Shown here piece by piece: positions 30,040 through 40,401 of a DNA stretch of 64,000 nt (positions are counted from its first letter, which is position 1; the number at the start of each line of letters is the position of its first letter). This DNA comes from Methanobacteriota archaeon (GTDB lineage: Archaea > Thermoplasmatota > Thermoplasmata > SG8-5 > JAGLSY01): contig JAEHCQ010000001.1 of NCBI GenBank assembly GCA_020696385.1, positions 544,001-608,000 of the forward strand, read 5' to 3'. Position numbers and translations under genes: made by a program. The notes beneath the pieces were generated by a model, which saw only the letters and a list, made by a program, of their open reading frames with translations, had not been told where the DNA came from and searched no databases.

Positions 30040-32958
30040 ATGAGCTTGGAAGGTTTTATTGGACGGGAGAAGAAACTGGCTGATCTTAGAGAAGGACTAA
30101 ATAAAGCTATAGAGGGAAAGGGAAATACCATCTTGATCTCTGGAGAGGCAGGTCTGGGAAAGACCACATTGATAAGGAAATTCCTAGCCTCTTCACCCAA
30201 TGATCCATTAGCTGTACTTTCTGGTACAGCATTGGAAGAATCATCTGAACCATTCCAGATATTCTCAAGAGCTCTTTCAAATAGGGGTAATAAACCTCTA
30301 TTTGAACAACATGAATACAGATCTTTTACCGAACTCTTTGCAGTAGATAGGGCAGGCATACTTGTAGGACAGGCGGCCCCGGATGATGAAGGACTGGATG
30401 GCGACATATTTGCAGGCATGCTCTCCGCAGTTCAGGATTTTGTAAGGGATTCTTTCGATAGGAGTTTGGAGAACAAAAATACCCTAGGTCGTTTGGAATA
30501 CGGCAATATGAAAATAATAATCGAACATGGAAATCATATCTTCTTAACAGCGGTTTTTACTGGCTCGGAACATGAGAACATGAAATCCACGGTTCGCAAC
30601 TCTTTGGATAGGATCGAGAGCAAATATGGCCATATACTAGAAAACTGGTCTGGCGATACAAGGGATATCAAAGGGATACAGGAGGAGATCGTTCTTCTAG
30701 CCCGATCGAAGTTCCTAGTTCGAAAGAGCCTGGAAGGTATAATCCTGGAACAGGAGAGGACCAGGATAGCGGAGGAGGTACTGGAGACCCTTCATGCTCT
30801 AAGCAGTGACAAGAGCATGATATTGCTATTAGAGGATCTTCAATGGGCTGATGAATCCTCGATATTTGTCCTGAATTATATATCAAGGAACATTCGAGAC
30901 CGAAGAATCATGATATTGGGCACCCTTAGACCCCGAGAAGGAAAACATGTGCTGGATGCCTTAGAGGACATCAGAAAGTATGGTGGGATCAATGTTTTGG
31001 ACCTGGATAAATTCGATGAAGGGGACATTGAAGATCTGACCTCTGCTCTTTTCCCCAATAATAAATTTCCAAAAGATTTTCTTGTAGACATGGCATCACA
31101 GAGTGGCGGTAATCCTTTTTTCGCTTCCGAGCTCCTGAAATCACTTAGGGGCAGCGGTAGCATTGTGGAGAAGGACGGCAAATACTATCTTGATGATGAT
31201 GACATATCGATGCCAGATTCCATAGAGGCTGTGGTGCATCATAGATTGGAAATGCTCGATTCCAGCTCTTTGTCCATGATGGAATTCGCATCCTGCGTGG
31301 GAAAGGAGTTCGACAGTGAGATATTATTATCCTCCGTCTCACTGAAGGAACCTGAAATTGTAATTGAAAGGATGAACAAAACAGGAATATTTACCAGGAT
31401 CAATGGCATAGATCAATTCGCCCATGCCATGTTCCAGAGCATCGTGTACGACAGCCTGCCAGAAAGATGGAAGATGCTCCATCACAAGGAGATCGGTGAG
31501 TGGTACGAGAAGGAATATGCATCCAAACAGGACGAGGCGATCTATGAGCTGGCGAGACATTTCTCCAATTCAAGGGAGCATACGAAGTGCTTTAATTATT
31601 GTAGATTAGCTGGCGAGAAAGCAGAAAGCTCTTTCTCACCTGACTTTGCCACGGAATTTTACATGAAGGCCGTGGACGTGATACCTAAGATGAAATTAGG
31701 ACCTCAGGCCAAAGGTCAGGAGTTCATGCTCTTGGAAAGGGTGGGTGAAATGAAAGGCCTGCTAGGATCTTCTGACAGTTCCCTTGAGACTTATTCCAGG
31801 GCACTTGATTCTGCAGAGGATGATGCATCAAAGGCCCGGATACATAGGCGCAGGGCTTACATCATGACAACGCATGGACAATTTGATGATGCGTTAGCTG
31901 AGCTTGATACTGCCGATACTTTGCTTGAGGGCACGGACCATGATGAAATGGGATTCTTGCTCATAGCCAGATCTTTCGTGAACCTGAATAAAGGGCACTT
32001 TGATGACACTATCTGGATGTCTCAGAAAGGCATCAAGATCCTCGATAAGGTGGATAATATCGATGCCAAAAAGACCGTGGGCAGAGCGTGGAAGATATTG
32101 GGAGTCTGCCATTTACTTATGGGTAATTTCGATGAGAGTCTCAGGTGTCACAATATGGGGAAGCAGATAGGGGAAGAATTAAACGACCTATACGGTCTGA
32201 GTGCGGCTTACAATAACATAGGAAATATATATCTGACCATGGGATCGTTCCATGAGGCATTGGATCATTATGAGGAAGCCTTAAAGCTCTTGGAAAAGAT
32301 CAAGGATATCCAAGGAAAATCATACACACTCAATAATATCGGCGTCATAAAGAAGAACTTGGGGGAGTATGAGGAAGCCCAAGAATACTACGAAAAATGC
32401 CTGTTAATCATGGAAAAGATCGGAGACCCCAGCGGTATGTCCTCATCATGCAGTAATATCGGGAATGTCTTCGCAGAACAAGGAAGGCATGAAGATGCCC
32501 TCAAGTCGTATGAGAAGGGGTTGGAGATAGCGCGACGTATAGGTGATAAACAACAGATAGTGAATAATCTTTCATCATTGGTACCTTCAAGGGTTGCATT
32601 GGGCCAGATAGAGAAAGCGGAGGAGGAGTGTAAGGAGAGTATCGAACTCTCTCTTGAGATCGGATCCAAAAGAACAGAGATATGTGGGATCAGGACCCAA
32701 GGACTTATCCATACAGCAAGAGGCCAGTATGAAGATGCGGGCGATTGCTTTGAATTGGCCTCAAGCACCTTTAGTGAACTTGGAATGGAGGTTGAAGTGG
32801 CCAAGACACTATATGAACATGGAGTCATGTTCTTTAAGGCGGGTCATGATCAAAAAGGACATGAACTGATAAAAGAGGCAAGAGAAATATTCAAAATCTC
32901 AGGCATGGTCAAACTGGTGGAGGATTGTGACAGGATCCTGAAGTCCAATATGAAATAA
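30040..32958 (+). CDS. STAND/AAA_16 NTPase with internal longin/roadblock-like insert and C-terminal TPR array
   Basis: FIGRE, GEAGLGKT, LLLEDLQWAD, SGGNPFF, FAHAM; repeated AYNNIGNIY-type TPRs. Confidence 0.88.
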   Translation: MSLEGFIGREKKLADLREGLNKAIEGKGNTILISGEAGLGKTTLIRKFLASSPNDPLAVLSGTALEESSEPFQIFSRALSNRGNKPLFEQHEYRSFTELFAVDRAGILVGQAAPDDEGLDGDIFAGMLSAVQDFVRDSFDRSLENKNTLGRLEYGNMKIIIEHGNHIFLTAVFTGSEHENMKSTVRNSLDRIESKYGHILENWSGDTRDIKGIQEEIVLLARSKFLVRKSLEGIILEQERTRIAEEVLETLHALSSDKSMILLLEDLQWADESSIFVLNYISRNIRDRRIMILGTLRPREGKHVLDALEDIRKYGGINVLDLDKFDEGDIEDLTSALFPNNKFPKDFLVDMASQSGGNPFFASELLKSLRGSGSIVEKDGKYYLDDDDISMPDSIEAVVHHRLEMLDSSSLSMMEFASCVGKEFDSEILLSSVSLKEPEIVIERMNKTGIFTRINGIDQFAHAMFQSIVYDSLPERWKMLHHKEIGEWYEKEYASKQDEAIYELARHFSNSREHTKCFNYCRLAGEKAESSFSPDFATEFYMKAVDVIPKMKLGPQAKGQEFMLLERVGEMKGLLGSSDSSLETYSRALDSAEDDASKARIHRRRAYIMTTHGQFDDALAELDTADTLLEGTDHDEMGFLLIARSFVNLNKGHFDDTIWMSQKGIKILDKVDNIDAKKTVGRAWKILGVCHLLMGNFDESLRCHNMGKQIGEELNDLYGLSAAYNNIGNIYLTMGSFHEALDHYEEALKLLEKIKDIQGKSYTLNNIGVIKKNLGEYEEAQEYYEKCLLIMEKIGDPSGMSSSCSNIGNVFAEQGRHEDALKSYEKGLEIARRIGDKQQIVNNLSSLVPSRVALGQIEKAEEECKESIELSLEIGSKRTEICGIRTQGLIHTARGQYEDAGDCFELASSTFSELGMEVEVAKTLYEHGVMFFKAGHDQKGHELIKEAREIFKISGMVKLVEDCDRILKSNMK

Positions 32959-32961
32959 TCA

Positions 32962-33128
32962 TCATAATATCCTCGGACCGATGATCTGCCACAGTATGAG
33001 AAATAGAATGGAGAATGCAAGGAACATGGTCATCGAATCGATGGACTTTGTTCTTTTATCGGCTTCCATATTGGGCTTCAGCTTTTTCGAAATGTCAGTC
33101 AGCCAGTCCTTGAATATGTATCCACCGT
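32962..33128 (-). repeat. 167-bp direct duplicate of the site-2 protease 3' end (33321-33487)
   Basis: 160/167 identical; all 7 differences are synonymous in the protease frame. Confidence 0.95.
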
Positions 33129-33278
33129 GAGCCTTTTCTTTTATCCTCGCTGCGCCTTAGTTCGAATCGCTATGCTTCTCGAACTAATTATTTGCGAAAT
33201 TTACGCAAATAAGAGCTCGGGCTCCAAAAGAACAAGTATCACAGTGCAAAAGAAAACTCGCCCTCACCTACTCGCTCG
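33129..33278 (-). mobile_element. Putative non-autonomous structured mini-element between the duplicated gene ends
   Basis: Two adjacent 9-bp hairpins (33157-33187, 33188-33212) enclosed by CCTCGC...GCTCGG; T-rich/A-rich arms; related copy at 24192. Confidence 0.55.
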
Positions 33279-33320
33279 TTGTATTTGTTAAGCTGGGTGT
33301 GAGTAAGAACCATGCTCAAT

Positions 33321-34676
33321 TCAAAGTATGCGCGGCCCGATGATCTGCCACAGTATGAGAAATAGAATGGAGAATGCAAGGAACATGGTCATCGAATCTA
33401 TGGACTTTGTTCTTTTATCGGCTTCCATATTGGGCTTCAGCTTTTTCGAAATATCAGTCAGCCAGTCCTTGAATATGTATCCACCGTCCAGAGGAACCGC
33501 AGGTAGAGCATTGGTAAGGCCGACCATGAGATTGAGCCAGAAGATCCAATAAAAGGAATTGGCTATTACCCAGAAGATAGATTCGGGGATGGATGAAAGT
33601 GGGCCAGTGATCTCGTAGAAGACACTTGTCTCTTCAGTTACTGGGCTCATCCTCTGCAATGGCAAAGTGATGTACAGGGCCATTGATTGGATGATGCCAC
33701 CCTGCTCATCCGCTCCCTTGAAGGGGTGGAAAGCATCGGTGGATATGTCCTGAGTGGAGACACCCAGATAGCCTGTGCCATTATCTTCATCTTCCTCTGT
33801 ATAATCATATCTATTGGCTAGAGTGAGAGTGATTGAATCGAATCCCGTATCCTTATGATAGGTCTCGATCGTGATATTCTGTCCCGCGGTGGTATCTTGA
33901 ACAAGATCCGAGAAATCACCATAGGTTTCGACAGGAACTCCATCAAAGGAGACCATGATAGAACCTGCGGTCAAATTGTCGTAGGCTGGAGAATCTGGTG
34001 TGATGCCAGTTATTCCAATACCTTCGCCATTGTTCGCAGGGCCGACAGCTCCCATGAGCAGACCGGAAAAGATGAGCGCACATACCGCAGCGACTATGAG
34101 ATTGGATGCTGGACCGACAGCGAACATCCTCGTCCTGTGCTTGGAATCGATCTTCATGATCTTATCCTCATCGGGCTCCATGAAGGCTCCCATCGGGATT
34201 ATCCAGAAAGTGAGACCCAGTGATAGGACTTTCACGTCCGCATGTCTGGTCATTATGCCATGCGAGAACTCGTGAATTATGATAGCGACTACCAGGCCGA
34301 GAATACCATACCATAATGGGATTATCGGGTTTATGCCAGGCAGACCCAATAGCATGTGTGGTTCGACAACCGCGCTATCCGGTATTCTGACGACCAAAGT
34401 GGCCACCCAGACTAAGACCGCGGTCATAGTCAACATCGCCCCACCCACAAGGATGAGTGATATATTACCATAGAACTTGCAGAATTTTGTGTTCTTGGAT
34501 GCCCTCTCGATAAGATCGCGACCTTTCTTCGTCCTCCACATGAGGAAGGGGCCGTAGAAACTGAGATTGTACTTGTCCAGCTTGGCATAGTACTTACTCT
34601 TCCAGATGATGTACTCTACTATTATCCAGAGAAAGATTAGCCCGAAGGCGAACAGGTACCATTGTGTTAACGACAT
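33321..34676 (-). CDS. Site-2 (M50) intramembrane metalloprotease with PDZ domain
   Basis: HEFSH, GAFMEP, AVGPASN, NALPAVPLDGG; start MSLTQWY. Confidence 0.94.
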   Translation of the reverse strand: MSLTQWYLFAFGLIFLWIIVEYIIWKSKYYAKLDKYNLSFYGPFLMWRTKKGRDLIERASKNTKFCKFYGNISLILVGGAMLTMTAVLVWVATLVVRIPDSAVVEPHMLLGLPGINPIIPLWYGILGLVVAIIIHEFSHGIMTRHADVKVLSLGLTFWIIPMGAFMEPDEDKIMKIDSKHRTRMFAVGPASNLIVAAVCALIFSGLLMGAVGPANNGEGIGITGITPDSPAYDNLTAGSIMVSFDGVPVETYGDFSDLVQDTTAGQNITIETYHKDTGFDSITLTLANRYDYTEEDEDNGTGYLGVSTQDISTDAFHPFKGADEQGGIIQSMALYITLPLQRMSPVTEETSVFYEITGPLSSIPESIFWVIANSFYWIFWLNLMVGLTNALPAVPLDGGYIFKDWLTDISKKLKPNMEADKRTKSIDSMTMFLAFSILFLILWQIIGPRIL

Positions 34677-34884
34677 ATTATCCTCAGTTGAAGGCGGATA
34701 ATTGGTCGTGCTTATAAGTTTAACCCCCACTTTTTCCTTTTAAGATTATCTATGCTGGATGTCCAATTATAACCCTATAAATTTCTAAAATTTTTCATCC
34801 TGAACTAAGGCGGAAACTACATAACCTCTCAACCCAATCCCTGCCGTTCATCGCCATCCAGAGCTATGAAATAGGTAGCAAACA

Positions 34885-37800
34885 ATGATACGCAATGTAA
34901 AGAAAAAATACAGCAAGAAACAAGTGCTTGGGCAAATGCTTCCCCTTGTCCAGACATGGTTCGATAGGAGCTTTAAAGATGTCACAGAGCCGCAGGCTTA
35001 CTCTATCCCCGTTATACAACAACGCAAGAATATTCTGATATCATCCCCCACTGGCTCTGGAAAGACACTCACCGCCTTCCTTTCCATAATAAATGAATTG
35101 ATGCTCAAGCAGGAAAAGGAAGAGCTAAAGGATGAGATATACTGTGTCTATGTATCTCCATTGAAAGCTCTGGCCAATGACATTGACAAGAATTTGAAAC
35201 AACCACTAGCTGAATTGAAAGACATGGCCAAGGAGCTGGGCTTGGAAGCTCCAGAGATCCGTGTCGGTGTGCGAACTGGAGACACAACTCCCTACGAACG
35301 GCAGAAGATGGCGAGAAAACCACCACATATCCTGATCACCACCCCGGAATCACTGGCCATTGTCCTGACCACGCCGAAGTTCAGCGAGAATCTGAGATCG
35401 GTCGAATGGCTGATAACTGATGAAATTCACGAAATATGCAATTCAAAGAGGGGGTCGATGCTATCCATCACCCTCGAACGCCTGCAGTCTCGTCTGGAGA
35501 AGGATGCGACCAGGATAGGGCTGTCCGCAACCCAGTCCCCCATTAAAGAGATCGCCAGATTCCTGGGAGGTTACGAAAATGGAAAAGAACGGGATGTCTG
35601 GCTGGTGCAAGCAGAAGGGGGTAAGGATTTTGATATCAAGGTCATCACACCAGTCGAGGACATAACATCCCTGCCCTTTGAGATCGTCAATGCCAGGATG
35701 TACGATCGGCTGAAGGAGATGATCGATCAAACACGGACAACACTGGTCTTCACCAACACCCGGAGTGGGACAGAACAGGTGATGCTGAAGCTGGGAGAGA
35801 TGGGGCTGGAGGATATCGCGGCCCATCATGGCAGTCTGAGCCGGGAGACCCGATTGGATGTCGAGGATAGATTGAAGAATGGCGAGTTGAAGGCCGCCAT
35901 TTCATCCACATCATTGGAGCTGGGTATAGATATCGGAAGTATCGATCTCGTTTGCCAGATAGGTTCTCCAAAGTCCATCGCCAAGGGATTGCAGAGAGTG
36001 GGCAGAGCCGGCCATGGTGTCGGCCAGCAAAGCAAGGGGCGTTTCATGGTCTTTGATAATGACGACCTGGTGGAATGCGCGGTACTGGCTAAAAGCGCGG
36101 TGGACCATGACATTGACAGGGTGAGCATCCCGGAGAGCCCGCTGGATGTACTGGCACAAACTATTGTTGGACTTTCATTGGAGAAGAGGTGGGACATTGA
36201 AGAGGCCTATTCGCTTATCAGGAATTCTTATGCATATCACAAATTGACCAAGAAAGACTACATGTCGGTACTCAGATACCTGGGAAGCCGGGACATGCCG
36301 AATGTGTATTCCAAGATCTGGCTGGACGAGGATGAAGGAACATTCGGCGTAAAGAAAGGAAGCCGCCTCATCTACTATCTGAATAGCGGCACCATACCTG
36401 AAGAAGCGAACTTCAAGGTATTCTCCGACAAAGGAGGCAGGCTGGGAGAATTGTCCGAGGGATTCGTGGAAAAGCTTGGCCCTGGTGATGTCTTCGTTCT
36501 GGGTGGTAAGAGCTACAGGTTCGAAAGAGCCAGAGGCATGAGTCTGTATGTGAAGGACGCGACTGGTAAGAGACCGACAGTCCCTTCATGGACCGGAGAA
36601 ATGCTCCCCAGAAGCTTCGATCTTTCAGTCAATATAGGGAAGTTCAGAGAGCGAGTCACAGACCGAATTAGAGAACTTGATCCTGATAAATTATCAAAGA
36701 AAGAAGTGGATGGAAAAACCAGGGAATTGAAGGAATGGCTCGTCAGAGAATATCATCTGGATGGTCAAGGGGCGAATAGTATAATCTCATATTTTAGAGA
36801 GCAACTGGCCTTTAATAAAAATGTCCCATCCGATCGCGACCTGCTGGTGGAGGAGTACGTGGACAAGAAAGGCAATACGAATTTAATATTCCACTTCTGT
36901 TTTGGTAGAAGGGTCAATGATGCACTTTCCAGAGCCTATGCCATGATATTATCCGACAAATATGACACTAACATCAGTGTTTCGATAACTGATGATAATT
37001 TCATGCTCACCCTGCCGAAGGAGATACCTCTGGAGAATTTTGAAGGATTGATAGATGAGAAGAAACTAGTGGGGCTTTTGGAAAGGGCGGTTGGCGAGAC
37101 CGAGCTTTTCAAGCACAGGTTCAGACACTGCAGCACAAGGGGCCTGATGGTTCTCCGTAACTATCAGGGAAGATCAGTGCCTGTTGGCAGACAGCAGCAG
37201 AGGGCGCAGAAGGTTCTGAGAGCCATAAGTGATTCGGATGACTTCCCCCTGGTGAAGGAAACTTACAGGGAGATCATGACCATGGTTATGGATCTGGACA
37301 ATGCAAGGGAGATCATCAGGTCTATCGAGGCAGGCAAGAGGGTGATGCATTACTCCAGCAGCAATGAGATACCATCGCCCTTTTCACATAATGTCGTCCT
37401 GTCTGGCATGTCGGATATCGTACTGATGCACGACCGCAGTGCTTTGCTCAAAGAAATGCACAGAAAAGTTCTTGATAGGATCGGGGGAGCGGGTTCGATA
37501 AAGCCCGAGTTCAAGACAGCGATTGTCAAGGAGCATTTTGCTGGCAAATTGCTGGACATGCATGTGAGGAAAAAGGAGGATATCATCCCACTTATGCGAA
37601 TGACTGGCCCCTTGGAATTATTCCAGAGAAAGGACAGGAGCATCTATGACTTCTCGGATGTCGAGACCAATATCCTGGCAGAATGGTGCAAGGAACTGGT
37701 CAATGATGGAGAAATTCATTCAGTATGGTCTGGAAGAAGTCTCTGGCTACCATCAGATATGGCAACCAGATACGCCTCGATCTACAGATCGGATGACGAG

Positions 37801-40401
37801 ATAACACCGGATGGTCAGAAGATCATCAATATACTGGATGATGCGAAAAAACCCATATCCACAAGATCCATATCCAAAAAACTAGAAGCCATGGACGAGA
37901 GTGAATGGGACAATGCGAGCACGAGAAAGGTATTGAACTCTCTCGAGAGGCGGTATCTCACGGCCAAGACCCAGATGGATGGAAAGGGCTTCGGACTTTG
38001 GGGGAAATTGGTGGTAGAACCTGCCCCGGAAGGGGAGAAGTATCTGAAAGATCGCGTGATCAACCATCTGGATCTTTTCGCACCCCTTTCATTGGAGGAA
38101 CTGTCCTTCGAACTTCGCCTTTCTGAAGAGGTGTTGGAAGGCGTATTGGAAGATATGCAATCCGAGATCGAAGTAATGGCGAAGTCTTTCACAGAGCCAT
38201 ATGTCCAGTACATGCTGGCTCAGGATTATTCCGATCTGAAGAGCACGGGAGAGGAGATCACCATGTCACCATCGGAATTGAGCAATTACCGCACCTGGAA
38301 ACATTTCAATGGATTCAAGAACATTGATGATTTCTTTGAAAGATACGGAAGTGTCGGGATGCTCAATGATGTAGTTTCCAGATTGGGACTGGATGGCATC
38401 GAGGATTGGGGTGAGAAAAGAAGAAGCGGGGATATCCTTCAGGGAAGATTCTGGGATGGGAGTGTTTGCTTTGTCAGGAAACAGGATGCGCCAAAATTCA
38501 TCAATGCCTTCAGAAAAGAGGAATTGGGCAAGGTGGACAAGCAGATATTGAAGATCATATCCGATAATCCAGGAGCGGATATAGTCAAGATACATGAGAT
38601 CTCGGAGATCCCGAAGGACGCGCTCAAGCCCATAGTGGAGAAATTGGATCGGAATATGCATATAGCGAGAAAGCCAGCGGAAAGAGCTGGCTTCAACCCG
38701 AACTTCGAATCCTGGTCAACCAGGAATAAATATTATAAATTGGATAGCAAACGATCTACTATTGATGGCAAGGCCTGGCTATTGAAGAAGCTGATATCGG
38801 CTTATGGACCGATATCAGCTTACGAGCTTGCCAGATCAGCTGGAATGAGGCGGGATGAGATAAGAGACCATCTGCTGAAGCTGAGAAAAACAGGGAAGCT
38901 GGCCGAGGTCTCCGTCATAGGTAGTGAGGGGCAGAAGCTCTATATCTGGGAGAAGGAAGTGAAGAGCCTTCGTAGTGGCGGAGGGAGAGCTCTCAAACAG
39001 GTGAAGGAAAAAGTCCATATCATGACCATCTTCGACCCTTTCGCCTTCCATCACAAGAATGAGATAAGAATGAAGTACGGAGATGCCTGGTACTACACTA
39101 TCTTCCGCGGCTCGAAGCTCATAGGTATGATGGAGATGTGGGAGATGAGCGGATGTCTCGAGATACGGGAACTGGATATCGACGATCCGGATGACCTGCC
39201 AGATGTTCTGAAGGCTATTGATGATTTTTCAGAATTCTACAAGCGCAACTATCACGAAGTTATCAGGATCACGGGAGCCTTTAGAGATAGTGTAGTTGAA
39301 ATGGATAAGAAATATATCAAGATATTCGAAAAGGCCGGGTACTTCAGATCGCGCAATTGGCTATTGAAAGGAGAGGTCGTCGATATGATGATGACCGATG
39401 ACCAGATGGTCTCCTACGCTCTCTGGAAACAACATGTCGTGCCAGAGAGGCATTTCCAGGATATCGAGGAAGGTCTGGCCAAGCTGGGCGGCTTCAAATC
39501 CGACCTGGAGACCGACCTCAGAGTGGATGATCCACGAAATCTTAAGAGGATGTTCAAGGACGAGATAGTCGAGCGAGGCCAGCTCATACCCGAATACATG
39601 ACCTATGCCCTACCTGAAGAGATGGCACTTTACAAAGCCGCGAAGCATGTGGAGATCGATAGAGAAATGAAGTACATGGTTACCGCACTTAACTGGGAGC
39701 ATGGATTGAAACGGAATAGATTGCTGGAATCCACCCCTCTGAGCTTCAGGAATGCGGCAGACGCTCTCACCCGCCTCAATAAAGGCCTCCATGTCCTTCG
39801 AGATCCAAAGAACAATTACTACCTCACCCCGGACTACAGGTATGATAGGGAAGAAGCCAGAGACAAGGTCCTCTGGCTTATTTTTGATTCCTTCGGGGTA
39901 TTCACCGCAGAAGGCCTATCCATGTACACCAAAAGCGAGTACAAGATGGGGGAGATAAGGAGAGCCCTGAGCAGGTTCGAAGCTCAGGGGAAATTGGTCA
40001 AAGGATTCTTGTCAGAAGATGATAATACATTATACTGGCTTGTAAAAGAAGACATGCCCAAATTGCCCATGGAACCTCATGATGTGAATATCATTCTCGC
40101 TCCATCCGCCTATGACAGATTATCCACATACCTCATGCCCATGACAAGGAAGAAATTCGGGTTTGGTTCATGCTTCATCGTGATATATGGAGGGATCATC
40201 GTCGGGGTCTTCAGGGCGAATATGAGAAGGACCGAGCTTCTGGTCGGGGAATACAGAGGCGAGAAAGAGGGATGGGGAATGATACAGGATTATGCGATCG
40301 ATATAGGGCGGCGGATGAGTATCAAGGAAAATGAGGATGTCATAAGTGAAGAGGAGATCATGGACTGGTATGATAAGACATCTGGCCGTGAATTTAATTG
40401 A
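34885..40401 (+). CDS. lhr: Lhr-family SF2 helicase with long winged-helix C-terminal extension
   Basis: SPTGSGKT, PLKALANDI, DEIH, SAT, HHGSLS, LELGIDIG, QRVGRAGH; 1838 aa. Confidence 0.93.
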   Translation: MIRNVKKKYSKKQVLGQMLPLVQTWFDRSFKDVTEPQAYSIPVIQQRKNILISSPTGSGKTLTAFLSIINELMLKQEKEELKDEIYCVYVSPLKALANDIDKNLKQPLAELKDMAKELGLEAPEIRVGVRTGDTTPYERQKMARKPPHILITTPESLAIVLTTPKFSENLRSVEWLITDEIHEICNSKRGSMLSITLERLQSRLEKDATRIGLSATQSPIKEIARFLGGYENGKERDVWLVQAEGGKDFDIKVITPVEDITSLPFEIVNARMYDRLKEMIDQTRTTLVFTNTRSGTEQVMLKLGEMGLEDIAAHHGSLSRETRLDVEDRLKNGELKAAISSTSLELGIDIGSIDLVCQIGSPKSIAKGLQRVGRAGHGVGQQSKGRFMVFDNDDLVECAVLAKSAVDHDIDRVSIPESPLDVLAQTIVGLSLEKRWDIEEAYSLIRNSYAYHKLTKKDYMSVLRYLGSRDMPNVYSKIWLDEDEGTFGVKKGSRLIYYLNSGTIPEEANFKVFSDKGGRLGELSEGFVEKLGPGDVFVLGGKSYRFERARGMSLYVKDATGKRPTVPSWTGEMLPRSFDLSVNIGKFRERVTDRIRELDPDKLSKKEVDGKTRELKEWLVREYHLDGQGANSIISYFREQLAFNKNVPSDRDLLVEEYVDKKGNTNLIFHFCFGRRVNDALSRAYAMILSDKYDTNISVSITDDNFMLTLPKEIPLENFEGLIDEKKLVGLLERAVGETELFKHRFRHCSTRGLMVLRNYQGRSVPVGRQQQRAQKVLRAISDSDDFPLVKETYREIMTMVMDLDNAREIIRSIEAGKRVMHYSSSNEIPSPFSHNVVLSGMSDIVLMHDRSALLKEMHRKVLDRIGGAGSIKPEFKTAIVKEHFAGKLLDMHVRKKEDIIPLMRMTGPLELFQRKDRSIYDFSDVETNILAEWCKELVNDGEIHSVWSGRSLWLPSDMATRYASIYRSDDEITPDGQKIINILDDAKKPISTRSISKKLEAMDESEWDNASTRKVLNSLERRYLTAKTQMDGKGFGLWGKLVVEPAPEGEKYLKDRVINHLDLFAPLSLEELSFELRLSEEVLEGVLEDMQSEIEVMAKSFTEPYVQYMLAQDYSDLKSTGEEITMSPSELSNYRTWKHFNGFKNIDDFFERYGSVGMLNDVVSRLGLDGIEDWGEKRRSGDILQGRFWDGSVCFVRKQDAPKFINAFRKEELGKVDKQILKIISDNPGADIVKIHEISEIPKDALKPIVEKLDRNMHIARKPAERAGFNPNFESWSTRNKYYKLDSKRSTIDGKAWLLKKLISAYGPISAYELARSAGMRRDEIRDHLLKLRKTGKLAEVSVIGSEGQKLYIWEKEVKSLRSGGGRALKQVKEKVHIMTIFDPFAFHHKNEIRMKYGDAWYYTIFRGSKLIGMMEMWEMSGCLEIRELDIDDPDDLPDVLKAIDDFSEFYKRNYHEVIRITGAFRDSVVEMDKKYIKIFEKAGYFRSRNWLLKGEVVDMMMTDDQMVSYALWKQHVVPERHFQDIEEGLAKLGGFKSDLETDLRVDDPRNLKRMFKDEIVERGQLIPEYMTYALPEEMALYKAAKHVEIDREMKYMVTALNWEHGLKRNRLLESTPLSFRNAADALTRLNKGLHVLRDPKNNYYLTPDYRYDREEARDKVLWLIFDSFGVFTAEGLSMYTKSEYKMGEIRRALSRFEAQGKLVKGFLSEDDNTLYWLVKEDMPKLPMEPHDVNIILAPSAYDRLSTYLMPMTRKKFGFGSCFIVIYGGIIVGVFRANMRRTELLVGEYRGEKEGWGMIQDYAIDIGRRMSIKENEDVISEEEIMDWYDKTSGREFN

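Follow-up and report, generated by a model that had tools for sequence, protein, structure and literature searches.

A short structured repeat associated with duplicated gene ends in Thermoplasmata

Why should an intact gene be closely followed by a second, unattached copy of its own end? The question is raised by the gene for a site-2 protease (Peptidase M50) in a Methanobacteriota archaeon of the class Thermoplasmata, located in a 64,000-nt stretch of contig JAEHCQ010000001.1 (positions 544,001 to 608,000) that we refer to as the window. The spacer between the two copies contains a structured repeat of ~95 nt, which we named E, and we found that the M50 duplication belongs to a recurring class of insertion-duplications linked to this element. 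In the window's own genome (G000, a metagenome-assembled genome [MAG] of 2.28 Mb in 50 contigs, 94.5% complete), 27 of 37 E loci have a direct duplication of their flanks, of 22-320 nt and 76-100% identity, when a local alignment score of at least 40 between left and right flank is taken as the threshold; none of 111 mismatched-flank controls reached this score (maximum, 38). In other assemblies, a flank duplication ending at the pyrimidine run of E was present at 21 of 53 loci and in 0 of 53 controls (maximum, 37). We give a probability of roughly one-half to the explanation that E is passed between related lineages together with the end of the gene beside it and recombines into the homologous gene, which is thereby kept intact.

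The M50 locus and the repeat in its spacer

The locus contains the following features, in window coordinates, with contigs of G000 denoted by C and a number and G002 being a congener:

30040..32958, plus strand: convergent neighbour gene, AAA_16 ATPase with TPR repeats, 972 aa (open reading frame [ORF] list; Pfam AAA_16 7e-17, TPR_12 4.8e-38)
32962..33128, minus strand: orphan M50 3' end (copy B), which opens with the AC of the Asp codon in LDG and spans 54 codons and a stop; detached from the gene (direct repeat and alignment)
33129..33155, plus strand: left part of E (E+), with the pyrimidine run CCTTTTCTTTT at 33132-33142 and the conserved block CTCGCTGCGC; matches at 9 other genome sites
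33156..33213, plus strand: nested 58-nt module of two hairpins that interrupts E; four other copies, 85-97% identical
33214..33280, plus strand: right part of E, with the inner stem, purine runs at 33224-33236 and 33247-33258, and the conserved right end CTACTCGCTCG; nhmmer match C11:577215-577280, model positions 32-97, 53.8 bits
33281..33320, no strand: 40 nt that separate E from the stop of the intact gene; found nowhere else in the genome and without a counterpart at the G002 locus
33321..33487, minus strand: copy A, the in-frame 3' end within the intact M50 gene (repeat search, alignment)
33321..34730, minus strand: intact site-2 protease gene, Peptidase_M50 with PDZ, 469 aa (ORF translation; Pfam PF02163 2.9e-28, residues 141-434)

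A repeat search of the window returned the two gene ends as a direct repeat (32962-33128 and 33321-33487) of 167 nt in two copies, 96% identical and with a spacing of 359. Pairwise alignment placed 7 base differences in five codons, every one of them silent: with the orphan given first and the in-gene copy second, these are GAC/GAT (Asp), ATC/ATA (Ile), GGT/GGG (Gly), AGG/CGC (Arg), and TTA/CTT (Leu). The differences are patchy, with 2 in 150 nt and the remaining 5 of 7 in the final 17 nt. The repeat starts with the AC of the GAC codon in ...PLDGG... of the ORF at 34730..33321 on the minus strand; this motif and HEFSH, which correspond to the zinc-binding LDG and HExxH motifs of Peptidase M50, are present in the translation of the intact gene, and the Asp of LDG is a zinc ligand. 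The orphan copy produces a second M50 match (98% over residues 415-469), is reached by no in-frame ORF of at least 40 aa, and ends in a stop codon (32962-32964) that is separated by 3 nt from the end of the convergent gene at 32958. A scan of 32700-33600 for bacterial-type terminators and promoters, whose model does not extend to archaeal signals, returned one terminator-like and one promoter-like site, both in the orphan copy and no more numerous than in shuffled sequences. Beyond the M50 gene and divergent from it, a 1838-aa ORF with a helicase-like start (...SPTGSGKT...) occupies positions 34885-40401 of the window.

Within the 192-nt spacer (33129-33320), a nested 58-nt double hairpin separates the left and right parts of E, and 40 unique nucleotides follow. 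Searching its own genome with the spacer gave 27 matches that fall into three modules, corresponding to spacer positions 1-27, 28-85, and 87-153; as positions 1-27 and 87-153 are adjacent at other genome sites, they together form the ~95-nt repeat. We call the orientation in which the pyrimidine run comes first E+ and its reverse complement E', the minus strand of 33129..33155 being the 3' A-rich tract of E'. The left start of 33129..33155 is shared by 24 E copies in the motif listing, and canonical E copies are without the 58-nt module. The spacer folds modestly better than shuffled sequences (z of -2.2 and -2.0), and no tRNA or tmRNA was found in it.

Much of this had been anticipated in an initial annotation of the locus made from its sequence. 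The repeat search and pairwise alignment bear out the 167-nt duplication with its 7 silent differences, alignment to the M50 ORF confirms its start inside the GAC codon of LDG, and the 3-bp distance between the stops of the orphan and the convergent gene was read correctly. The description of the spacer as ORF-less and of the insert as carrying no enzyme gene also holds in substance, since only mechanical ORFs of 46-54 aa overlap the spacer. What the initial annotation had taken for a single folded element of ~150 bp is instead a mosaic of two repeat types and unique sequence.

The nested module has a distribution of its own. Three of its four other copies lie within a different stem framework, CCCCGCC...GGCGGGG, and the fourth (85% identical) lies between CCCCAGG and CCTGGGG. 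Because its copies occupy different stem frameworks and flanks, hairpin modules appear to be shuffled between repeat families, as in bacterial mosaic repeats. The other copies in G000 are at C47:89654-89711, C11:77828-77885, C11:224455-224512, and C48:3093-3152. Further hairpin modules, of the TGAATCAAGC...GCTTGA and AGATGC...GCATCT types, are found between the two purine runs of E, i.e., between the tracts U1 and U2 described below, at C33:161079, C33:252805, C48:100951, C11:632372, C50:1551, C46:40818, and other sites in G000; they turn the terminal loop of E into an internal loop with upper hairpins.

We determined the extent of the family with a profile built from 12 canonical copies, which in an nhmmer search of G000 gave 48 matches that merge into 37 loci of at least three subfamilies. 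A pattern of the two conserved blocks of E, scanned over a species-representative genome collection, matched 61 stretches. Assemblies labelled Thermoplasmata, Methanomassiliicoccales, Thermoplasmatota, Methanobacteriota, or archaeon, 16 in all, account for 56 of these, and their contig names point to different assemblers. Five bacterial stretches, GC-rich and without pyrimidine or purine runs, were judged to be chance matches and were removed before all counts. The archaeal matches numbered 59, 53 of them with sufficient flank on both sides. With the strict pattern, E was present in 16 of 41 related Thermoplasmata genomes, mostly from one order, while the reversed-pattern control gave 0; by family, it was found in 4/4 genomes of f1, 2/2 of f2, 8/13 of f4, 1/1 of f12, and 0/2 of f3, and in none from other families of the class. 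The viral contigs scanned with the pattern contained no copy.

In Rfam 15, the best match to window positions 32800-33700 scored 19 bits against a gathering score of 70, and at four other E loci only the neighbouring tRNA matched. A full-text literature search returned no account of repeats of this kind in Thermoplasmata or Methanomassiliicoccales and none of ENE-type elements (see below) in archaea. At C11:78051-78086 in G000, E is cut to 36 nt, and it is full-length at the orthologous locus L055 of another assembly; the truncated copy appears to show the decay of old insertions.

Gene ends duplicated around E

The duplications share a common layout. At 22 of the 37 loci in G000, an open frame of at least 80 aa on the strand opposite E+ ends no more than 120 nt from the right end of E, mostly at 0-48 nt. 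In the direction of the gene, the usual order is gene, stop codon, short gap, E', and an orphan copy of the gene's end, with E typically 0-50 nt behind the stop codon of a gene or behind a tRNA. In E+ orientation, the left copy of the duplicated flank ends a few nucleotides from the first base of E. The joints have 0-3 nt of ambiguity, and no shared motif was found in the genes immediately ahead of the duplicated segment, which itself starts G-rich, with G at position 1 in 16 of 36 cases and at position 2 in 19 of 36.

We also observed tRNA genes beside E. At locus L090 (C50:510-3857 of G000), two diverged tRNA-Phe(GAA) genes (722-809 and 1201-1287; ~80% identical; ARAGORN) flank an E copy, and the 320-nt duplication at this locus includes the tRNA-Phe gene and the last 60 nt of tnpA (1456-1887), the genome's sole IS200-type transposase gene. 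Sequence resembling a tRNA 3' end (T arm and acceptor strand) adjoins E at L038, L044, L077, and L071 (pyrimidine run side) and at C11:492513 of G000, with no flank duplication. ARAGORN found a full adjacent tRNA at one of five tRNA-like loci checked (L045) and none at a sixth locus, L032; the other tRNA-like ends beside E may be pieces of tRNAs or genes with introns. Two or three E copies stand in tandem, with 90-190 nt of repeated flank between them, at C47:27148-27594, C2:12204-12600, and C11:530544-530903 of G000 and at L081 and L085.

If an orphan gene end were simply the remnant of a duplication, it would be expected to decay, and the differences between the two copies speak to this point. 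In the nine loci with open frames of at least 300 aa, 46 of 52 differing codons are synonymous; in 2000 simulations of random substitutions, the synonymous fraction averaged 0.23, peaked at 0.42, and in no case reached the observed value. The counts of synonymous to non-synonymous codons are as follows: M50, 5:0; C3, 13:1; C46:100224, 13:3; C48:100951, 4:0; C33:161079, 3:0; C11:78051, 3:1; C49, 3:1; C11:299751, 2:0; and C33:175432, no differences. Over all loci scored, the differences at codon positions 1/2/3 number 19/15/67. Because the synonymous share so exceeds the 23% expected at random, both copies appear to have evolved as coding sequence. An orphan decaying in place would look otherwise, so that, judged by this substitution pattern, one copy per locus must until recently have been a working gene end in another lineage.

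The congener G002 offers evidence on the polarity of the insertions. Its M50 orthologue is 89% identical, ends at the same residues, and is directly followed by the convergent TPR gene, with a single gene end and no E; in the alignment to this empty site, the convergent AAA_16/TPR gene of G000 is contiguous with the orphan copy. The G002 site was empty and single-copy at all four loci tested (M50, C46:100224, C33:252805, and C3:2427), and at the last three of these the two G000 flanks map to overlapping G002 coordinates, by 203 nt at C46:100224 and by 116 nt at C33:252805. The E insertions in G000 thus appear to be derived.

Three-way comparison with G002 also bears on which copy came from where. 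At C3, the in-gene copy differs from G002 at 4 of 91 nt and the orphan at 12 of 91, and the gene body is ~10% diverged. Since the in-gene copy is nearer to G002 than either the orphan or the gene body, the two copies have different histories, with the orphan apparently the native end and the in-gene copy the imported one. At M50, the in-gene copy equals G002 at 4 sites within the last 17 nt where the orphan differs, and at a fifth site all three differ; the last codons of copy A (GGG CCG CGC ATA CTT) and of G002 (GGG CCG CGT ATA CTT) are alike. The pattern at C46 and C33:252805 is mixed. At the orthologous locus C11:78051 / L055, which is older, the in-gene copy is identical in both genomes and the two orphans have drifted apart.

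The initial annotation had explained the M50 locus by an incoming element that inserted at the conserved catalytic LDG and brought a replacement 3' end with it. Part of this proposal fares well: the duplication is tied to an inserted repeat, the copies differ almost solely synonymously, which an origin of one of them in another functional allele would lead one to expect, and two comparisons that the initial annotation had put forward, of other copies of the repeat and of empty-site orthologues, gave duplicated gene ends around E elsewhere and, in G002, a site without the element and with a single gene end at M50 and three other loci. Its choice of LDG as a special site finds no such backing. 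The other junctions, at 22-320 nt from the element, are in unrelated genes and a tRNA and share the G-rich start, which the M50 joint, GAC GGT GGA (LDGG), also fits; for this reason, the position of the joint at the catalytic LDG codon looks incidental, a coincidence.

The predicted fold of E

We aligned 68 distinct E copies in E' orientation (MAFFT) and tested the low-complexity tracts sequence by sequence, as the alignment is out of register there. The consensus hairpin has 15 pairs, 12 of them with compensatory double changes. From the outside in, the E' hairpin comprises a covarying 3-bp outer stem, an internal loop, an inner stem of 7-9 bp, and a terminal loop. The internal loop, CGAGCGAGCAGG opposite CCAGCRCAGCGAGG with tandem G.A, is nearly invariant. 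The terminal loop is made up of a 5' U-rich tract (U1), a spacer that accepts the extra hairpin modules, and a 3' U-rich tract (U2). An A-rich tract, located at the fixed end of E, follows the hairpin after 1-4 nt.

Watson-Crick complementarity links the A tract to U2, with a mean run of 10.25 nt in a sequence's own pairing versus 5.25 nt with shuffled tails. For 64 of the 67 sequences, the sequence's own value was reached by no more than 10 of 200 shuffles, and the pairing is made by 41 distinct paired strings, including non-homopurine extensions. The match between U1 and the A tract is better in the mirror (parallel) register in 33 of 60 distinct cases, worse in 5, and tied in 22, and amounts to 0.81 versus 0.61 for shuffles (significant in 39 of 59), in sequences that are related and of low complexity and with some positions that would be G.G. 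Non-Watson-Crick pairs of the inner stem on the E' strand comprise 14 of the G.U type and none of the A.C type, the other 31 being G.A, A.G, or A.A. Because of this wobble asymmetry of 14 to 0, the folded strand of E appears to be the one that is co-directional with the upstream gene. Folding of single sequences gave z of -0.1 to -2.4, and the minimum-energy fold flips between a long hairpin and a tail:loop helix, so that thermodynamics alone does not decide the fold.

The order of parts in E' (stem, U tract, optional upper hairpins, U tract, stem, linker, and genomically encoded A tract) is that of an ENE and its A-rich tract, as in PAN, MALAT1, and the dENEs of plant and fungal transposons. 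As in ENEs, a stem closes two U-rich tracts, one of which pairs with an A-rich tract farther downstream. The 3' U tract of E' is Watson-Crick complementary to, and covaries with, the A tract, and the 5' U tract tends to mirror it, which is the geometry required of a parallel Hoogsteen strand. E differs in that some of its triples would be G.G-C, and the comparison sets an element read from DNA sequence beside RNAs. The topology of E' is thus a candidate for an H-type pseudoknot in which a U-rich strand lies in the major groove, like the triple helices formed by ENEs and A tracts. The short distance between the outer stem and the A tract would be sterically awkward for a triple helix if the outer stem neither opened nor kinked. 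The oligo-T runs within E' should halt archaeal RNA polymerase before it reaches the 3' tract. E may equally well act as single-stranded DNA or H-DNA. We regard E as a candidate for a new RNA or single-stranded DNA motif that is conserved across an archaeal order and absent from Rfam. In the parts of a 2026 review of RNA triple helices that list ENE-type elements (PMC13541005), these are named only in viruses, long non-coding RNAs, and plant or fungal transposons.

How a gene end may come to be duplicated with E

In the explanation that we favour, a unit of gene end plus E from a related lineage would recombine with the resident gene in the gene segment that the two share. This could occur by a single crossover with a circle of gene end plus E or by a one-sided homologous event closed by a microhomology joint at the fixed end of E. 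The product would be the gene body with one complete gene end, E, and the displaced other gene end, and the insertion would cost little. The fixed end of the unit would be the pyrimidine-run end of E (the A-tract end on the gene strand); its other end would be variable, G-rich, and in the gene, which would account for the M50 joint in GAC GGT GGA. Tandem arrays of E plus flank are expected from repeated circle integration or unequal exchange. Later conversion would partly homogenise the copies and so leave patchy identity of the kind seen at M50. As E codes for no enzyme and the searches identified none, the work would have to fall to the host's recombination functions or to a trans-acting protein that has escaped recognition.

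Several points weigh against this explanation. A plain single crossover does not homogenise the copies, so that later conversion has to be assumed as well; neither a circular form nor a donor allele nor an enzyme was seen; and G000, being a MAG, is a population consensus. The E-proximal edge of the duplication is variable, with the right copy starting anywhere from 53 nt outside E to deep within it, the latter where E copies are tandem. At three loci, this edge falls at the base of the inner stem, 13-14 nt within E, where the second copy stops; such a position fits polymerase stalling as well. No duplication reached the threshold at 10 of 37 loci in G000 and at 32 of 53 elsewhere, among them copies beside tRNA-like 3' ends. 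Where the ORFs are short and doubtful, the changes are mixed, and the total over all loci is 62 synonymous versus 24 non-synonymous codons. The two M50 copies share 23 derived sites relative to G002 and differ at only 7, so that the donor would have to be a very close relative; a metagenome scan for close M50 alleles covered 80 loci and gave a best identity of 41-53%, none near enough to show donor or empty alleles. For the M50 locus itself, duplication in place is still a contender.

Such in-place duplication, which involves no foreign DNA, is the leading alternative, but as a general account we consider it unlikely. Here, E would act as a fragile site or replication barrier (as a hairpin, a pseudoknot, or mirror-repeat H-DNA), and a break at its fixed end would be followed by microhomology-primed copying of the sequence upstream of E and by end joining. 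A joint that is fixed at one edge of the structured part, with 0-3 nt of microhomology and a G-rich start, argues for this, as do the second copies that stop at the inner-stem base, the derived sites shared by the M50 copies, and the identical copies at C11:72996 (22/22), C11:632372 (24/24), and C33:175432 (60/60). U1 and U2 are also mirror repeats, which are the classical requirement for H-DNA. However, a non-functional orphan should gather random changes, and the observed 46 of 52 synonymous codons depart widely from this. In addition, the copies at C3 differ by 15%, with one nearly identical to another species' allele, and E would first have to reach each gene end by some other route.

A somewhat smaller chance still goes to one-ended mobilisation by an enzyme, in which a trans-acting recombinase or HUH/Y1 transposase would cut the fixed end of folded E and a pseudo-site in the neighbouring gene and move E together with the captured flank, in the manner of IS91/ISCR or of recombination between attC and a secondary site. 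A nearly invariant internal loop between covarying stems is what is expected of a protein-binding site, and the wobble-pair asymmetry between the strands points in the same direction. G000 also has four matches to the tyrosine recombinase family PF00589, on contigs C47 and C1 and none at the M50 locus, and a single Y1 (IS200-type) transposase gene, which adjoins an E copy and which most genomes of the order likewise have in single copy. The captured flank, however, always lands in its own homologue, which a site-specific enzyme leaves unexplained; nor is there a conserved motif before the joint in the gene. TnpB (PF07282) had 0 matches in G000, with a positive control in 8 of 14 genomes, and E and Y1 are neither adjacent nor distributed alike, as described next. 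An IS91-type Y2 transposase gave no match in G000 in a search whose control was silent everywhere and which is therefore uninformative.

The Y1 transposase was considered as the driver of E and rejected for want of support. E lies within 1.5 kb of a Y1 gene at only 1 of 30 loci, it is present in five genomes without a Y1 match (G003, G004, G018, G021, and G029), and Y1 is present in family f3, where E was not found (0 of 2 genomes). The Y1 matches score ~100 bits and are mostly single-copy per genome across the order (G001-G020); one transposase copy per genome is the usual pattern of a domesticated gene and not of an active insertion sequence. Contig C1 (30.7 kb), with two of the tyrosine-recombinase matches, has a GC content of 42.3%, compared with 44.5-46.4% in the remaining large contigs, and may represent an element that is integrated or extrachromosomal.

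Copying through RNA is improbable. A 5'-truncated mRNA fragment that ends at a protected 3' end of E would be reverse-transcribed and recombined back into the gene, giving a signature like that of long or short interspersed elements (LINE/SINE). One constant and one variable end, E' co-directional with the upstream gene, and a 3' pseudoknot of triple-helix-like geometry would all suit such a route. G000, however, has no reverse transcriptase domain (PF00078, 0 matches in a genome with the completeness given above; control positive in 3 of 14 genomes), the oligo-T runs in E' should end archaeal transcription ahead of the 3' tract, and the divergence between lineages is left unexplained. Least probable of all is an assembly artefact that joins two strains' alleles, since, although G000 is a MAG and the copies differ by strain-level variation, a joint between the end of E and mid-gene sequence that shares at most 3 nt would presumably require real spanning reads in a graph assembler, the same architecture recurs at 27 loci here and 21 in assemblies from different assemblers, and the locus C11:78051 / L055 has its orthologue in another assembly with the in-gene copy conserved and the orphans diverged.

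Several known systems resemble the arrangement in part. Integrative elements that carry a replacement 3' gene end (those with tRNA- or protein-gene integrases, among viruses, plasmids, and islands) likewise leave the target intact and displace the native end as a direct repeat. They are kilobases long, encode an integrase, and have one fixed att site, whereas the E insert is 100-360 nt, is geneless, and has a different gene end and length at each locus; between the repeats there is no integrase gene, and the insertions have no att core in common. Campbell-type insertion-duplication and one-ended capture of the IS91/ISCR1 type, rescued by homologous recombination, are known from suicide plasmids and from large elements that bear a transposase. 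There, a circle entering by a single crossover duplicates a gene fragment around the insert, often in tandem, and, as with E, one end is fixed and the captured flank varies; they differ in that no circle, replicon, or transposase is seen with E. In fungal mitochondria, atp6 and cob have C-terminal duplications flanked by GIY-YIG and LAGLIDADG ORFs, according to passages in PMC6279837, and these homing-endonuclease ORFs share with E a partial C-terminal duplicate of the host gene downstream, with mobile DNA between (PMC6279837). There, an endonuclease ORF drives the process, and the M50 locus has none.

Among short repeats, the bacterial REP (repetitive extragenic palindrome)/BIME and BOX families are like E in being short and structured, in lying at gene 3' ends and often between convergent genes, and in having interchangeable hairpin modules, alongside a clade-conserved, single-copy Y1. 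Unlike E, REP repeats are not linked to long duplications of the neighbouring gene end, and in the REP/REPIN-RAYT system the transposase would be expected beside the repeat, while here Y1, though mostly single-copy, is neither flanked by E (1/30) nor co-distributed with it. The integron attC site has the same general layout of outer stem, unpaired spacer, inner stem, and variable terminal part, with strand-specific folding. In attC, R'' and R' cores with the consensus RYYYAAC / GTTRRRY bound an imperfect hairpin on either side, and the sites occur in cassette arrays; neither core was found in the columns conserved across the 68 aligned sequences, and copies of E are dispersed singly. E does not have the form of a miniature inverted-repeat transposable element, as its pyrimidine run pairs with an internal loop and not with the other end, and the duplications vary from 22 to 320 nt. 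An IS200/IS605-derived element with a TnpB guide RNA finds no counterpart in G000, where PF07282 is without a match and no Rfam family matched. The same is true of a diversity-generating retroelement, given the absence of PF00078 matches and the nature of the M50 differences (C/T, C/A, T/G, A/C, G/C, T/C, and A/T, all silent). The logic of a gene kept whole by a spare end is thus a known one, and what appears different here is a structured, enzyme-less repeat of ~95 nt that applies it to dozens of genes with any duplication length.

The fold and the duplications can be brought together in one proposal, which we put forward as speculative. E may be an archaeal counterpart of the ENE and A-tract triple helix that caps or stabilises the 3' end of the upstream mRNA; on the strand of the gene, its RNA would fold into a pseudoknot in which two U tracts, mirror images of each other, clamp the 3' A-rich tract. 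The same end of E may serve as the fixed joint of an enzyme-less mobile unit of gene end plus stabiliser, which would spread between lineages by recombination and leave displaced gene ends behind. If true, a 95-nt RNA structure would be both a host-beneficial 3'-UTR (untranslated region) module and a selfish element, and triple-helix protection of 3' ends would extend to Archaea.

For the annotation of these genomes, orphan gene ends and duplicated tRNAs beside E should be labelled neither as pseudogenes of unknown origin nor as assembly errors. If the transfer of gene end plus E between lineages holds, a tiny non-coding element invades the coding ends of essential genes harmlessly, using only its homology to the gene that it carries along, which would constitute a new mode of spread between homing, integration, and ordinary recombination. 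The displaced gene ends would then be dated fossils of DNA exchange between lineages of uncultured Thermoplasmata and would provide a read-out of their recombination partners.

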